Source: a virus
Taxonomy: Duplodnaviria > Heunggongvirae > Uroviricota > Caudoviricetes
DNA length: 32,728 nucleotides
IMG/VR virus record: IMGVR_UViG_2663762948_000007
Coordinates: 1 to 32,728 of that record
Direction: 5' to 3' (one strand)
Shown: positions 2,701-27,290 of the stretch, in pieces
Numbering within the stretch: the stretch's first letter is position 1
Layout: each line of letters begins with the position of its first letter
The notes under the pieces: generated by a model
Seen by the model: the letters and a program-made list of their open reading frames with translations, nothing else
Database searches by the model: none
Told to the model about the DNA's origin: nothing
Translations under genes and position numbers: made by a program

Positions 2701-5117
2701 CGCCCTCCTTTTGCCAGATTCCAGACCGCGCCACCGGGTGAAAGGTCACGGCCTATCAACTCGCGGTATCGCCGATCAACAAAACTACCTACCTCCCGCC
2801 CGAATTGCTCATATCCACCGCTAGCCTGAGTCTGGGTATTCCCATTGCCATCAATCTGAATACTGACCTGAGGAGCACTACTACCACCCGGTGTTAAGCC
2901 TGAGATTCCCATAGCACGCACGCCCAGCGATCCGTCAGCGGCGCGGGTCAGTGGCATAATAGCCTCCGGCCCAGCCTCCCCCATCAATCCGGCCCCTTTG
3001 GCAAAGGCAAACAGTGTTGGAGAGCTGACGACAGAGTTACTGTACTGACTGAGATCGGCAGAAGAGTAAACGCCGCCTTTGGCGTTGAATTGCAGGCTCG
3101 CCCCGTAGGACTGAATCGCAGTACCGCTGCTGGCGGAAGACGATGCGGCACCACCGAACAATGAGCCTATCGAGCTGGCTGCATTGGCGATCATCATGTT
3201 AACCATCACCTGTTCGATGATTTTCAGAACACTGACACCCCAGTCTTTCCAGCTCGCTTTATTGCCGTTGAGCATGTCGACGATATTGCTGCTGATACCG
3301 GAAAGCGCGCTTTTCATAGCGTCCGCCGCCAGCGTCGCATAGTTAGTTGAATCATCTACCCAGTCAGCGAGACCGTCTCTGGCGCCAGTCACCCAGTCAG
3401 ACTGCAGCGCATCAATTTGACTGTAATAATCCTCCTGGATGCCCAGCCTCTCAGCTTGCGCATCCTTTAATGCCTGGGTTTCGCGGTCATAAACTGTCTG
3501 GCTGATATCTCCTGACTGATACTGCTTTTGCAGATCGCGCTGCTGATCGAGATAACTGCGCTCTATACTCAGCCTTTCCCTCAGCCTTTCACGCTGCTTG
3601 TCACCGAGTCCGGCCCCCTGAATATCCACGCCCAAATCTGCACGTGCATTCTCGTTCTGCTCCTGCAGATTTGCCACGAACGCCGCTACCTTCGCGTTTT
3701 CTTCATTAGCTTTTTTGACGGCATTAAGGCGATCAACTTCCTGAGCCAGAGACGCAAGTCGTTTCTTCTGGGTTTCGTTAAGCCCCTGCAACTTGCCGTC
3801 AGCTATATCGAACTGCAGTTTTTGCTGCTCGGTCACCACAGCAGTTTTTTTGCCGGTGGTATCGATCAGCTCAATCTGACGCATGTAACTGCGCTCAGCG
3901 CTTTTAAACGCTGAATCCAGTTTCTGACCAGAGGTATTTTTTTGCGGCTTACCGTTTGTTTCCCCGGCGCCAAGGGTATAGTTTGTTTTGACTGGCTCGG
4001 GCAGTTTTATTTCCGGTAGAGTAGATTGGGAGTTTCTCAAAAAGGCCAGTCGCCTCTGGAGCTCAGCCCTTTCGGCCTCCTTACCGGATACGTCCATACC
4101 TATTCTGTTGAAACTCGCCAGTATGCCTTTATCATCGAGATCTGCATTCAGGTTCTTGATGCGCCGTTCAATTTCTGGAATGGAGGCATTCAGGCCGACC
4201 GAACTCCCACCTTTGTACTGGTCTATCAGCTTTCCGGCCTCGGCTCCTACCCTTACCAGCCAGGTGGCAAGGTCCACTACCCCACCAACCAGATCAGTCA
4301 GACCCTGAATAACAGCCGGGTCTTTAAATACATCCCCCATATCTCCAATAGACTTCTGGAGCCCACTCAAATCTACGCTGGCGAGCCCTGCAGCAAGTTC
4401 AATTTTGACGCCGTTGACCTGCGTCTCCATATCCTCAAACAGGGCGTTGACTCTGACCAGCTTTTCAATATCTGCGTCATCGGGCGCCACACCAAACTTC
4501 TTCGCGGCATCCATATACTGACGCAGCTTTTCACTGCCATTGTCCAGGAGCGGCAGCATCTTTGACAGGTCATTACCCAGACTCTCCAGGATGGTAGTCT
4601 TCTCGGCGTTGGACTTAACTTTCTCCAGTGCGTCGCTGATAGCCAGGAGTTGCTTGTCGGGAGATTCTCCGGCCAGTTTCTTAGCCGACAAACCCAGAGC
4701 GTCCAGCGCACCGACCGCCTCACCAGATTTATTAAGAACGGCATCACCGATTTTGTCTCCGACATCTTTAAAGATATCGGCCATCTGATCGCCGGAAACA
4801 CCTGCTTTTTCTGCAGCATATTGCCAGGCTAACAGGGACTGCGTGGACATGTTAAGTGACTTTGCCCAGCGGTCTGATTCGGTAATCTGACGTGAAGTGG
4901 TTTTGAGCAGGTTATACCCCGCCACTCCGGCTCCGATGGCTGCAGCCCCGACTGCTGTTGCGAATCCGGTCATGGCAGCTGCAGCGGCAGCGGCATCCTC
5001 CTTTACCTGCTTACGCCATTTTTGTGAAGCTCGCTCAGCCTGCGAGAGGCCTGAGACAAAACCGCCCACTTTGGCAATCAGGTCGATCGTCAGCGTGCCC
5101 AGTGATTTGGAAGCCAT
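2697..5117 (-). CDS. H: Tail tape measure protein
   Basis: 806 aa, Ala/Gly-rich N-terminus, long coiled-coil middle; follows G-T. Confidence 0.9.
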   Translation of the reverse strand: MASKSLGTLTIDLIAKVGGFVSGLSQAERASQKWRKQVKEDAAAAAAAMTGFATAVGAAAIGAGVAGYNLLKTTSRQITESDRWAKSLNMSTQSLLAWQYAAEKAGVSGDQMADIFKDVGDKIGDAVLNKSGEAVGALDALGLSAKKLAGESPDKQLLAISDALEKVKSNAEKTTILESLGNDLSKMLPLLDNGSEKLRQYMDAAKKFGVAPDDADIEKLVRVNALFEDMETQVNGVKIELAAGLASVDLSGLQKSIGDMGDVFKDPAVIQGLTDLVGGVVDLATWLVRVGAEAGKLIDQYKGGSSVGLNASIPEIERRIKNLNADLDDKGILASFNRIGMDVSGKEAERAELQRRLAFLRNSQSTLPEIKLPEPVKTNYTLGAGETNGKPQKNTSGQKLDSAFKSAERSYMRQIELIDTTGKKTAVVTEQQKLQFDIADGKLQGLNETQKKRLASLAQEVDRLNAVKKANEENAKVAAFVANLQEQNENARADLGVDIQGAGLGDKQRERLRERLSIERSYLDQQRDLQKQYQSGDISQTVYDRETQALKDAQAERLGIQEDYYSQIDALQSDWVTGARDGLADWVDDSTNYATLAADAMKSALSGISSNIVDMLNGNKASWKDWGVSVLKIIEQVMVNMMIANAASSIGSLFGGAASSSASSGTAIQSYGASLQFNAKGGVYSSADLSQYSNSVVSSPTLFAFAKGAGLMGEAGPEAIMPLTRAADGSLGVRAMGISGLTPGGSSAPQVSIQIDGNGNTQTQASGGYEQFGREVGSFVDRRYRELIGRDLSPGGAVWNLAKGGR

Positions 5118-5136: not shown

Positions 5137-5798
5137 TTATGTCCAGCTGGCTCTGGCTTCCTCTAACGAGATTGGTCCATCAGCAGCTTTGACTTTGGTA
5201 AAGTGAAGTGTGAAATCGGTCGGGTTGAATGGTGGGCGCTTGGGGTCTCTGTTAACGTTGGCTATCATGCTGCTCACCAGCCCGGCACCCCACTCAACCC
5301 GCAACATAGGGTTCAGACTCCCGTATCGTTCCCGGTACTTTGCCCAGAGTTGGGACTCTTTGAATGAGAGGACTTCCCGCGCTTCGGCGATTGTTCTGCC
5401 TCCGATTCCGTTGAGGACGAGCTCGCACCAGAATTCGTCTTCGGCGCTGAGCTCGAAGTCTTTCCCAGATCGTTAACTTCCTGAATGGCCAGAAGCAGTG
5501 CTACCGTCAGGCCGCCATCCAGTGCACCACGTTCAGGATCTGCCTCACCAGTAATGTCAGCCGGGGTGAAGATGGGTTTACCATGTTCATCGCAGATGGA
5601 TGCGGCGATACGCCCTGCCACACCATCGACCTTACCACCAAAAGCCAGCACATCGGACGTTGCTGTGTGATAACCCATCGGGCGAACATACACGGTCGCG
5701 GTGATTTTTTTATCGCCTTGCGTCCAGGTGATTTCTTTCTCAACCGGGCGACCGGTAAACGCGCCGGACTCCTTGAGTGCATCAAGTGTTAATTTCAT
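5137..5798 (-). CDS. Tail assembly chaperone G-T fusion made by programmed -1 ribosomal frameshift
   Basis: Canonical G GGA AAG heptamer in G frame; -1 frame continues open for about 110 codons to TAA at 5137-5139, just before the H start. Confidence 0.7.
5313..5798 (-). CDS. G: Tail assembly chaperone G (zero-frame product)
   Basis: gpG-like sequence upstream of slippery site; zero frame continues 49 Ser-rich codons to stop at 5313. Confidence 0.7.
   Translation of the reverse strand: MKLTLDALKESGAFTGRPVEKEITWTQGDKKITATVYVRPMGYHTATSDVLAFGGKVDGVAGRIAASICDEHGKPIFTPADITGEADPERGALDGGLTVALLLAIQEVNDLGKTSSSAPKTNSGASSSSTESEAEQSPKRGKSSHSKSPNSGQSTGNDTGV
5460..5466 (-). other. Slippery heptamer GGGAAAG (programmed -1 frameshift site)
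   Basis: Plus strand CTTTCCC = minus GGGAAAG in X XXY YYZ register with the G frame (codons GGA AAG). Confidence 0.7.
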
Positions 5799-14075: not shown

Positions 14076-14272
14076 AATCGAAAACTCCTATTAATCATCG
14101 AATGGGGGACCCCATAAAAAAGTTTTCTAACCTGCGGCGATGTGAAAAGAGGTTAGGCGGCGGTCCTTAGCAGCATGGGGTCTGAACTTTTGACCCGCCC
14201 CCCAGCAAATGATAATCGTTTTCATTAAATATGAAATGATTGCATTTGAAATCAAATATTTGATATTGATTC
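14076..14272. other. Putative cos (cohesive end) region between HNH and small terminase genes
   Basis: Nested inverted repeats GACCCCAT...ATGGGGTC and CTAACCT...AGGTTAG, then AT-rich palindromic tract; position as in HK97-type packaging modules. Confidence 0.4.
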
Positions 14273-14623
14273 TCATTTGAACCGTTCGCGGCCAGTCTTC
14301 GACCTATGACAGGGCCAGCAAAGAGATTCGAGGTTGCTCATGTCGTCCGTGCCACCATTGGCCTTAGCGATGATGTGGTCAACGGTCTTTGCGGGAGAGA
14401 TCAGATTGTTGCGCTTGCAGTTCTGGCACAAATGTTTGTCCCGAGTAAGCACGGTGGCTCTTAGAACATCCCATTTGCTACCATATCCCCGTTGCTGTCG
14501 GCTCTGACCTCGTTGATGCTGTTGCCAGCCTTCATTGCGGTGTTTATCACAATAGCCTGAGCGGTCAGTGGTTGTGCCAGGGCAGCCACGCTTGCGGCAT
14601 GCTCTCGGTATTAACGCAGGCAT
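14273..14623 (-). CDS. HNH endonuclease (terminase-associated)
   Basis: Cys-rich HNH motifs; SD GGAGG 8 nt before ATG at 14623 (ORF track start 14638 is GTG). Confidence 0.85.
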   Translation of the reverse strand: MPALIPRACRKRGCPGTTTDRSGYCDKHRNEGWQQHQRGQSRQQRGYGSKWDVLRATVLTRDKHLCQNCKRNNLISPAKTVDHIIAKANGGTDDMSNLESLCWPCHRSKTGRERFK

Positions 14624-14627
14624 CAGG

Positions 14628-14723
14628 CTAACCTCCACGCCCGACGGCGTTCTGGTTCATGACCAGCTTGTAAATCTCTAACTGGAATTTCTGTTCTTCA
14701 GTCATGGGAATAATCTCTGCCAT
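14628..14723 (-). CDS. Possible 31-aa small protein (MAEIIPMTEEQKFQLEIYKLVMNQNAVGRGG)
   Basis: ATG with SD GGAG at 8 nt; stop 2 nt before the HNH start, suggesting translational coupling; below ORF-track threshold. Confidence 0.3.
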   Translation of the reverse strand: MAEIIPMTEEQKFQLEIYKLVMNQNAVGRGG

Positions 14724-15025
14724 TGTTGGCTCCGTTTATCCGTTAAAAGGGATATCAGTTAAGTTATCCCGTGTAGGGTATAAGCCATTGTCGAGACCAC
14801 TCATTGAATGGTCTCTGCAATAACCGATGTCTTTCCATCAGTCCGCCACCACAAAGAATCTTTTTTGCCATAAGGCAGGAGGTTCATCTTTCAGTGGCTG
14901 CCAGTGTTATTTCCCCACTTACTGGCTTGGGTTGCTTCGTGGTACTGCCGTAACTGGTTGCCAAGAATAAATTCCGGTTTCATTATCAAGCCCACCCGTA
15001 GATGGGCTTTGTAATGCCTACATGG

Positions 15026-27053: not shown

Positions 27054-27125
27054 GCGCGGCGTTACCGCATACCAATAACGCTTCACTCGAGGCGTTTTTC
27101 GTTATGTATAAATAAGGAGCACACC

Positions 27126-27290
27126 ATGCAATATGCCATTGCAGGGTGGCCTGTTGCTGGCTGCCCTTCCGAATCTTTACTTGAACGAATCACCCGTAAA
27201 TTACGTGACGGATGGAAACGCCTTATCGACATACTTAATCAGCCAGGAGTCCCAAAAAATGGATCAAACACTTATGGCTATCCAGACTAA
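27126..27290 (+). CDS. cIII: cIII (FtsH inhibitor)
   Basis: 54 aa MQYAIAGWPVAGCPSESLLERITRKLRDGWKRLIDILNQ..., matches lambda cIII; SD AAGGAG; below ORF-track threshold. Confidence 0.9.
   Translation: MQYAIAGWPVAGCPSESLLERITRKLRDGWKRLIDILNQPGVPKNGSNTYGYPD

Follow-up and report, generated by a model that had tools for sequence, protein, structure and literature searches.

How can 302 nt without any credible gene in the middle of a late operon be accounted for? This question is raised by the interval extending from position 15025 to position 14724 on the minus strand (referred to below as the gap), which follows a DUF2829 gene in a gene set corresponding to the late operon of a lambdoid prophage. 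All the coordinates are positions in the window, i.e., the whole stretch of 32,728 nt analyzed, and the RNA sequences are read on the minus strand, which carries all the genes around the gap. The preliminary description of this DNA presented the gap as about 300 bp without any convincing open reading frame (ORF) extending as far as the HNH gene and containing two stable hairpins, and suggested that it might hold a small RNA, a processing site, or the decayed remnant of a lost moron. The lack of a convincing ORF was borne out, as the ORF list gives only frames of 21-49 codons between 15025 and 14724 on either strand. The gap does not reach the HNH gene, however: the stump of a DUF2560 gene (14723-14628) intervenes. 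In our opinion, there is roughly one chance in two that the gap is a conserved, structured, non-coding module of the late operon which is read on the minus strand and plays its role at the RNA level.

Both hairpins were found to be present, a few bases away from the positions first given, and to be longer than noted. On the plus strand, their arms read GAGACCA (14793-14799) and TGGTCTC (14809-14815) in the one case, and AAGCCCA (14988-14994) and TGGGCTT (15003-15009) in the other. The folding energy of the 302 nt of the minus strand amounts to -100.4 kcal/mol, as compared with -74.7 +/- 4.7 in shuffled sequences (z = -5.4; none of the 100 shuffles were as good), and folding the plus strand gives z = -3.6. 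This excess is due to the two hairpins, since the 136 nt between them reach only z = -1.4 in the comparison with shuffles. The hairpins are copies of a single element about 37 nt long, sharing the same lower stem, internal loop, and flanks: a 5-bp lower stem (YAUUR/YAAUG) is followed by a 2x2 CA/GA internal loop and an upper stem of 9-10 bp. The first copy, H1 (14981-15016, minus strand), starts 9 nt 3' of the DUF2829 stop codon, reads CAUUA-CA-AAGCCCAUC-UACG-GGUGGGCUU-GA-UAAUG, and has the tetraloop cUACGg; the second copy, H2 (14786-14822, minus strand), reads UAUUG-CA-GAGACCAUUC-AAU-GAGUGGUCUC-GA-CAAUG. A covariance model built from hairpin copies (R1) gave these two matches and no others in the 32.7-kb window (H1, 58.5 bits, E = 3e-13; H2, 58.4 bits), the next best score being 11 bits. 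The same model gave 154 matches in 98 related loci and 165 more in a further 923 kb, and no match in 760 kb of unrelated phage DNA plus the Qin prophage of Escherichia coli K-12.

The upper stem of the element varies in the relatives in a manner which preserves the pairing. A second allele of H2 (UAUUACA-AAAGCCAUUC..GAGUGGCUUU-GAUAAUG) differs by four pairs altered on both sides, and the alternative upper stems include AAAGCCAYUC paired with GAGUGGCUUU, GGAGCUCUUC with GAGGGGCUUC, GCAGCCCUUC with GAGGGGCUGC, and, in a Citrobacter locus, AAGCGUCUC with GGGGCGCUU. This locus (L014) was the only useful one among the seven obtained in a contig scan with the DUF2560 protein. Among 25 distinct copies, 97.6% of the cells are standard pairs and eight of the 15 pairs are altered on both sides; when the partner columns are slid as a control, pairing falls to 36-50%. 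The covariation score of these copies is 0.482, as against 0.265 in shuffles (0/500 reach the observed value), but as the hairpin sequences are close relatives, the shuffle statistics overstate their independence. Since at least six different upper stems all pair, which is hard to explain otherwise, the fold appears to be selected for. The transcribed strand is the one concerned: 96.9% of the cells in 45 distinct copies pair on the sense strand versus 82.7% on the other strand, and the G.U pairs of the family fit the transcribed strand only. A U.G pair is conserved at one position of the stem in 22 of the 25 distinct copies, and C>U variants at 15004 and 15005 in H1 retain G.U pairs on the minus strand. 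Selection maintains the structure of the stem-loop family, and does so on the strand that is transcribed.

The gap is a widespread conserved piece and not a private leftover. A 501-base query centered on it matched 2557 of the 5426 complete E. coli genomes searched, mostly with 90-99% identity, and the gap alone matched 217 phage records with 80-99% identity, including HK97, HK022, HK620, Sf6, P22, ST64T, epsilon34, mEp235 and, in part, Stx phages. The preliminary description had proposed a comparison with related prophages and would have abandoned its suggestions if neither a discrete transcript nor any conservation in these prophages had been found; conservation is clearly present, the stretch recurring in over 200 phage records and about half of the complete E. 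coli genomes. In the annotated relatives, it forms an unannotated interval directly upstream of an 80-aa DUF2560 gene (hkbM in HK620, orf80 in P22, gene 67 in Sf6), and some of the records annotate "hypothetical proteins" of 30-35 codons inside it. The element is absent from the Qin prophage of E. coli K-12, where YnfO is a DUF3950 protein.

Two parts can be distinguished between the hairpins. The first (block 1; 14951-14980, minus strand), which is about 30 nt long, occurs in two alleles and is the most variable part of the pile-up, is what is left of an rha-type gene at its 3' end: its allele B (..TCTGGTCACTAATTAACGGCAG) matches the end of the intact Rha-like genes (..CCGGACTCACCAATTAACGGCAG, stop TAA) present in two relatives (L023 and L064). 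The second is a non-coding core of about 125 nt (14826-14950, minus strand), which is nearly invariant and is preceded, depending on the phage, by a Rha-like gene, a KilA/Ant-like gene, or H1 plus the remnant; in 77 distinct rows, positions 14915-14826 show almost only singleton variants. The core consists successively of CCC-AAGCCAGUAAGU-GGG, AACACUGGCAGCC, a GCCACU/GGUGGC helix, and GGCGGAC with the hairpin ACUGAUG-GAAAGA-CAUCGGU. In its module 1 (14896-14931, minus strand), the CCC/GGG stem with its loop AAGCCAGUAAGU is followed by AAAUAACA-CUGGC-AGCC, and GCCAG in the loop (14926-14922) might form a pseudoknot with CUGGC (14904-14900). Module 2 (14823-14852, minus strand) includes GUGGUGGCGGAC followed by the GAAAGA-loop hairpin, and GGUGGC (14850-14845) may form a closing helix with GCCACU (14898-14893). 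The decayed moron suggested previously therefore corresponds to some 30 nt (14980-14951) and to the neighboring DUF2560 stump, but not to the rest.

The position of the hairpins is tied to gene ends and mosaic joints. In the 141 distinct contexts examined, 59 hairpins start at most 15 nt after the stop codon of an open frame comprising 50 codons or more (at a distance of 1 nt in 35 cases), 46 are located directly 3' of the core, and 36 lie elsewhere, most of these behind an intrinsic terminator that closes an inserted cassette. The 187 loci carrying the core contain 315 hairpins on the same strand as the core and none on the other strand, and in 181 of these loci a hairpin is present 3' of the core. 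Homology among the relatives starts exactly at the first base of H1 (15016). In some of them, insertions of 270-400 bp with extra genes are found directly 5' of H2, whose allele comes with the insertion; in two others (L040 and L074), the core is absent and a single hybrid hairpin combines the body of H1 with the 3' flank of H2. Two family hairpins are even found in the other accessory interval, from Q to holin, in L202, where one follows an 89-codon ORF and the other an HNH/NUMOD-like ORF. Since the hairpins occur after stop codons and at breakpoints, the family labels the 3' boundaries of accessory units in the late operons of enterobacterial lambdoid phages and falls at the joints of the mosaic.

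Some of the inserted cassettes deserve a description of their own. The HNH/NUMOD-like endonuclease ORF of L202 (5093-5611) is bracketed by the hairpins at 5007-5042 and 5628-5663. In the related viral contig L047, an int-alpA RNA (RF02996; 1556-1618, plus strand; 45.1 bits, threshold 35.8) heads a cassette inserted between the core and H2; an intrinsic terminator closes this cassette, and an H2-type hairpin comes next. In P22 (L096, about 1440-1950), an unannotated ORF on the opposite strand with a bidirectional terminator is located between H2 and orf80, which shows that this interval is an insertion hot spot; we take this ORF to be the pid moron, which was reportedly described by Cenens and coworkers in 2013.

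The same distribution might be expected if the hairpins were junctions at the DNA level, acting as single-stranded DNA or as short homologies in cassette exchange, while the RNA had no role at all. The hairpins are indeed located at mosaic breakpoints and flank inserted cassettes, as in the case of the L202 gene lying between two family copies, and hybrids of H1 and H2 are found where the core is missing. The copies all share one strand, their stems vary between conserved flanks, DNA hairpins tolerate G.T pairs, and the layout is comparable to that of integron attC sites or of the end hairpins of IS200/IS605. No recombinase, integrase, or transposase was found beside the copies in the annotated relatives, however, and the flanks YATTRCA/GAYAATG do not fit the attC core sites (RYYYAAC/GTTRRRY). 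Homologous recombination in the conserved flanks fully explains the alternative alleles, the orientation always follows late transcription, and the U.G pair conserved in 22 of the 25 distinct copies is more typical of RNA. We consider a purely DNA-level role unlikely.

At the curated thresholds, the covariance search with Rfam (Rfam 15) suggested in the preliminary description detected no family in the gap. In a permissive search, RF03044 (Proteo-phage-1), a candidate small RNA of Proteobacteria and their phages, matched 14967-14896 on the minus strand with 17.1 bits, as compared with a gathering threshold of 42 (E = 1-2), and the part aligned contains AAGCCAGUAAGUG and GAAAUAACACUGGCAGCC; the weak permissive matches with RT-17, IS009, and Yar_1 were treated as noise. 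The loop AAGCCGGnnAGUG of the P2 hairpin of RF03044 and its complementary 3' tail AACaCCGGCAGCC are found again in the window, as CCC-AAGCCAGUAAGU-GGG ... AACACUGGCAGCC. The 5' hairpin P1 (GCCAGG..CCUGG type) is unmatched in the core, its pairs being non-standard in the cmscan alignment, and the corresponding DNA in the relatives is a gene end or remnant. A sequence-only profile of module 1 trained on 20 non-enterobacterial copies gave a single significant match in the window, at 14929-14896 on the minus strand (E = 0.0017; next best 2.4). The module 2 profile matched 14848-14830 on the same strand with E = 3.3, ranking third in the window, which is not significant alone; it is collinear with module 1, and a match falling by chance on that strand no more than 150 nt beyond the 3' side of module 1 was estimated to have a probability of about 0.008. 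With a full-length nhmmer profile of the true Proteo-phage-1 units, the two matches (E = 1.7 and 4.6) were not significant alone; both are in the gap and in the right order. In view of the module 1 match and the collinear module 2, we regard the core as a putative miniature relative of the Proteo-phage-1 class, and not as a member of RF03044 as defined.

In order to describe this class, 83 viral loci were collected by means of a consensus pattern; six of those tested were confirmed by Rfam as true members (72-86 bits). The Rfam motif (82 positions) forms the 5' third of a conserved unit of about 235 nt (L100-L182, e.g., L135 717-1000), which includes P1, P2 with its loop AUAAGCCGGnnAGUG, the tail CCGGCAGCC pairing with this loop, a GCC/GGC helix closing a central domain with two hairpins, and then UCUUUGGCGGACAG, a GAAAGA-loop hairpin with a covarying stem, and an intrinsic terminator. 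The structure predicted by RNAalifold for the true copies has the same architecture as the core. The genomic context was worked out here and is not part of the Rfam model: the true units are located 3' of tRNAs (directly after the tRNA genes in L172 and L158) or of a phrog_3373 ORF weakly similar to Q-like antiterminators, and 5' of holin, spanin, and terminase genes. In shorter variants (L180, L181, L109, and L122), the P2/pseudoknot part is all that is kept, and RF03044 does not call them.

The core resembles these RNAs in its short stem around a loop AAGCCrGnnAGUG, the downstream complementary AACAC-yGGC-AGCC (pseudoknot), the GCC/GGC helix closing the central domain, GGCGGAC followed by a GAAAGA-loop hairpin, and its location in the late operon upstream of the terminase genes on the strand of the late genes. 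It differs from them by the lack of P1, by a P2 stem of 3 bp rather than 5, by a single shorter hairpin in place of the central two-hairpin domain, and by the absence of an intrinsic terminator of its own. The true copies have GCCGG/CCGGC, and therefore the A-U pair present between loop and tail in most copies of the core, instead of G-C, amounts to a change on both sides; in 12 enterobacterial copies, GCCAG occurs with CCGGC, which gives an A.C mismatch in the proposed pseudoknot. The context also differs: instead of lying between a Q-like gene and the lysis genes, the core is found beyond the lysis genes, with Rz and DUF2829 on its 5' side and the DUF2560 stump, HNH, and terminase genes on its 3' side, and no strong terminator accompanies it.

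The last part of the gap (14724-14785, minus strand) is the leader of the DUF2560 gene, with a Shine-Dalgarno sequence GGAG at 14733-14730. It contains the only hairpin in the gap followed by UUUU, a weak terminator-like structure present in the minimum free energy fold: GGGAUA (14770-14765), a loop, UAUCCC (14754-14749), and UUUU (14748-14745). In several phages, the leader segment (gap query positions 224-291) is found by itself, and about 37 nt including this hairpin are missing from L014, L019, and ST64T. The scan of the minus strand of the gap revealed no promoter-like site and no terminator associated with a hairpin; neither H1 nor H2 was reported as an intrinsic terminator. Promoter-like sites were as numerous as expected (3 versus 3.1 in shuffles), and terminator-like sites numbered 7 versus 3.0 +/- 1.8. 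On the plus strand, a promoter-like site (14958-14986) and a terminator-like site (14861-14882) were discarded, as they are not supported by the variation: a T/A variant at 14877 breaks the stem of the latter on both strands.

The 31-codon ORF next to the leader (14628-14723, minus strand) matches phrog_23132 (E = 1e-18) and PF10834 (E = 2e-9). Since only positions 1-23 of the 72 of PF10834 are covered and the intact genes encode 80 aa, this ORF is a truncated remnant; its homology to the intact genes stops at 14647. It is annotated as a truncated DUF2560 gene in the RefSeq record NZ_CP172108. Here as in the HK97-type phages, the HNH module cuts the DUF2560 gene after about 28 codons. The stump lies outside the gap coordinates, yet in the same conserved block. 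At the DUF2560/HNH junction (14621-14650, minus strand), the last codons of the stump hold GGAGG, 8 nt before an ATG at 14623, which is more likely to be the HNH start than the GTG at 14638 given in the ORF list.

Together with the leader hairpin, the core might form a cis-acting attenuator or antitermination RNA controlling whether transcription of the lysis and accessory genes reads through into the packaging genes. The order in the window (core, H2, the weak hairpin with its UUUU at 14770-14745, HNH, terminase) would suit such a device; the true Proteo-phage-1 copies, which follow the weakly Q-like ORF or tRNAs, end in an intrinsic terminator before holin, spanin, and terminase genes, and the variants L109, L122, and L136 are located directly upstream of terminase genes. 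However, the terminator-like hairpin is weak and missing from L014, L019, and ST64T, and in many relatives the core is separated from the downstream genes by the insertion of whole genes. In lambdoid late operons, moreover, polymerase modified by Q, as in lambda, already reads through terminators. Attenuation or antitermination is improbable in our view.

That the stretch has no function, being the leftover of lost accessory genes carried between selected genes and spread by recombination, seems quite improbable. The ~30-nt rha-type remnant and the adjacent DUF2560 stump are what such a leftover would contain, the core shows neither a thermodynamic signal nor internal covariation, and recent spread could account for the high identity. 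A leftover would hardly keep its fold, however, while four to eight hairpin pairs are altered on both sides, nor show at least six different upper stems which all pair; in addition, the core motifs are common to RNAs of distant Pseudomonas-type phages, and the core persists beside at least three different upstream genes.

Lastly, a micro-protein encoded by one of the short ORFs is highly improbable: ORF a (14983-14891, minus strand, 30 aa) and ORF c (14871-14764, minus strand, 35 aa) are called in some phage records (Dewey, Louie), ORF c is intact in most of the uninterrupted copies, and a hydrophobic peptide on the plus strand is preceded by a strong Shine-Dalgarno-like AGGAGG (14876-14881), but frameshifts (single-base insertions in L019 and P22) or an alternative allele of its 5' part leave ORF a with only 9 or 21 codons in 12 of the 38 distinct uninterrupted relatives, and its residues change freely, with replacements all along; several relatives have a broken ORF b; ORF c lacks a Shine-Dalgarno sequence, is interrupted in all the insertion alleles, and spans H2, where the changes restore pairing rather than being synonymous; and the plus-strand frame has its GTG 12 nt from the Shine-Dalgarno sequence and differs between the window (49 codons) and L023 (81 codons), C>S and V>A replacements included. 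The idea of a type I toxin based on this plus-strand peptide was rejected because the length and residues of the frame vary. The gap ORFs have no match in Pfam, the variation in the gap has no codon periodicity, and coding constraint is absent from the gap. Orf-118 of ST64T (L095 1352-1708) was dismissed as support for ORF c, since it is an over-extended call from the ORF c start. Inside orf-118, an 80-aa DUF2560 homolog starts at the usual CCGGAGCCAACA..ATG site, downstream of H2.

We therefore return to the reading of the gap as a conserved structured module of the late operon. On sequence grounds, we infer that the stretch is transcribed and that the acting molecule is the late mRNA. The gap would be part of the long polycistronic transcript running from the lysis genes to the packaging genes, and the module would consist of the paralogous stem-loops H1 and H2 bracketing the rha-type remnant and the ~125-nt core. 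At the RNA level, the stem-loops may act between cistrons as elements of 3' ends, of processing, or of stability; being short conserved sequences, they might incidentally provide the joints at which accessory cassettes are swapped by homologous recombination. The core might be a functional RNA with a pseudoknot, a closing helix, and a GAAAGA-loop hairpin, which acts either in cis or after release of the inter-hairpin segment from the long transcript. The small RNA or processing site proposed in the preliminary description is supported as far as a structured RNA is concerned, by the compensatory changes in the hairpins and the resemblance of the core to Proteo-phage-1, and fares better than the remnant.

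Several points weigh against this reading. The relatives are close and have spread by recombination, and the statistics based on shuffles are inflated. G.T pairs are tolerated in single-stranded DNA too, and the strand bias is therefore no proof of RNA. Neither hairpin is followed by a U-tract (H1 precedes AAACCGG and H2 precedes GCUUAUA), their helices of 16-20 bp are short for RNase III, and they match no known processing signal. The folding of the core alone (136 nt, z = -1.4 versus shuffles) is not exceptional on either strand, and the core has no covariation of its own because it is almost invariant. As regards Proteo-phage-1, the RF03044 score below the gathering threshold, the unmatched P1, the module 2 profile taken alone, and the A.C mismatch in 12 copies all point in the same direction. 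Lastly, as the conserved block carries a gene stump, some of the conservation may be due to hitch-hiking.

A more far-reaching version of this reading, which we find doubtful, can be put forward tentatively. The core and the stem-loops might form a functional RNA system of the lambdoid phages, in which the core would be the enterobacterial member of a broad class of phage RNAs, with Pseudomonas-type phages at one end and P22 and HK97 at the other. The Rfam model of this class would correspond only to the first third of an RNA of about 235 nt. The core might be cut out at the hairpins as a small RNA or might modify the transcription of the packaging genes, and the stem-loops might both mark accessory and anti-defence cassettes and help their exchange.

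Intercistronic stem-loops are familiar features of phage transcripts, as in the case of the C(UUCG)G hairpins of T4, the RNase III sites of T7, and sib in lambda. Like these, the hairpins described here are stable sense-strand structures between the cistrons of what would be a long phage transcript; H1 has a UNCG-type tetraloop (cUACGg), and the succession of upper stem, internal loop, and lower stem resembles the layout of the T7 RNase III signals. Unlike them, they show no sequence relation to the known elements and have a helix of only 16-20 bp. The flanks YAUURCA .. GAYAAUG and the confinement to two accessory-gene intervals of the late operon are features of their own. In 2001, Clark and coworkers reportedly described boundary or linker sequences at the joints between lambdoid modules in HK620, designated "bsq" in the Sf6 record. 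Like these, the present elements are short, conserved, located at mosaic breakpoints, and able to mediate homologous module exchange; unlike them, they are structured and strand-specific, with compensatory changes. In Sf6, bsq7 is annotated near these hairpins; no bsq feature is annotated on them in the HK620 and Sf6 records. The interval is the same as the moron hot spot of P22-like phages between lysis and terminase (rha, pid, orf80), where orf80 is a DUF2560 gene, and contains here the Tad2-like (DUF2829) gene and the HNH gene. To our knowledge, the literature on this hot spot deals with protein genes only. No description of the hairpins or the core was found in the searchable literature (DUF2560, Proteo-phage-1, boundary sequences, and BTP1 non-coding RNAs).

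As regards the other genes of this part of the window, which were taken from the ORF list and are all on the minus strand, the holin (16792-16469), lysozyme (16485-16009), and Rz (16012-15575) genes precede the DUF2829 gene (15496-15026). The product of the latter belongs to Pfam PF11195, Tad2-like (Thoeris anti-defence 2-like; E = 3e-26), and its homologs are labeled "anti-CRISPR protein" in some phage records; a site resembling an intrinsic terminator is located 5' of it (15544-15524, minus strand). Downstream of the stump are the HNH gene (about 14623-14273), the gene for a small terminase of the P27 type (14075-13602), and that for the large terminase (13602-11866). Between the HNH and small terminase genes there is a non-coding interval of about 197 bp (14076-14272), which presumably corresponds to the one where the cos site of the HK97-type phages is located. 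The sole match with a curated RNA family in the window is Lambda_thermo (RF01804, the lambda cIII thermoregulator element; 27113-27171, plus strand; 88.5 bits, threshold 50), which confirms the presence of a lambda-like early region.

These findings concern an unannotated stretch present in about half of the complete E. coli genomes and in the classic phages P22, HK97, HK022, HK620, and Sf6, an apparently empty interval which is in fact under structural constraint. A stem-loop located after a stop codon provides a usable marker for hot spots of accessory and anti-defence genes, H1 itself following a Tad2-like gene. The RNA of the Proteo-phage-1 class is apparently longer than its Rfam model and ends in a terminator. 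Besides being very common, the element occurs in tractable model phages, and its link to Proteo-phage-1, although below the family threshold, would make this candidate class amenable to study in phages with easy genetics.

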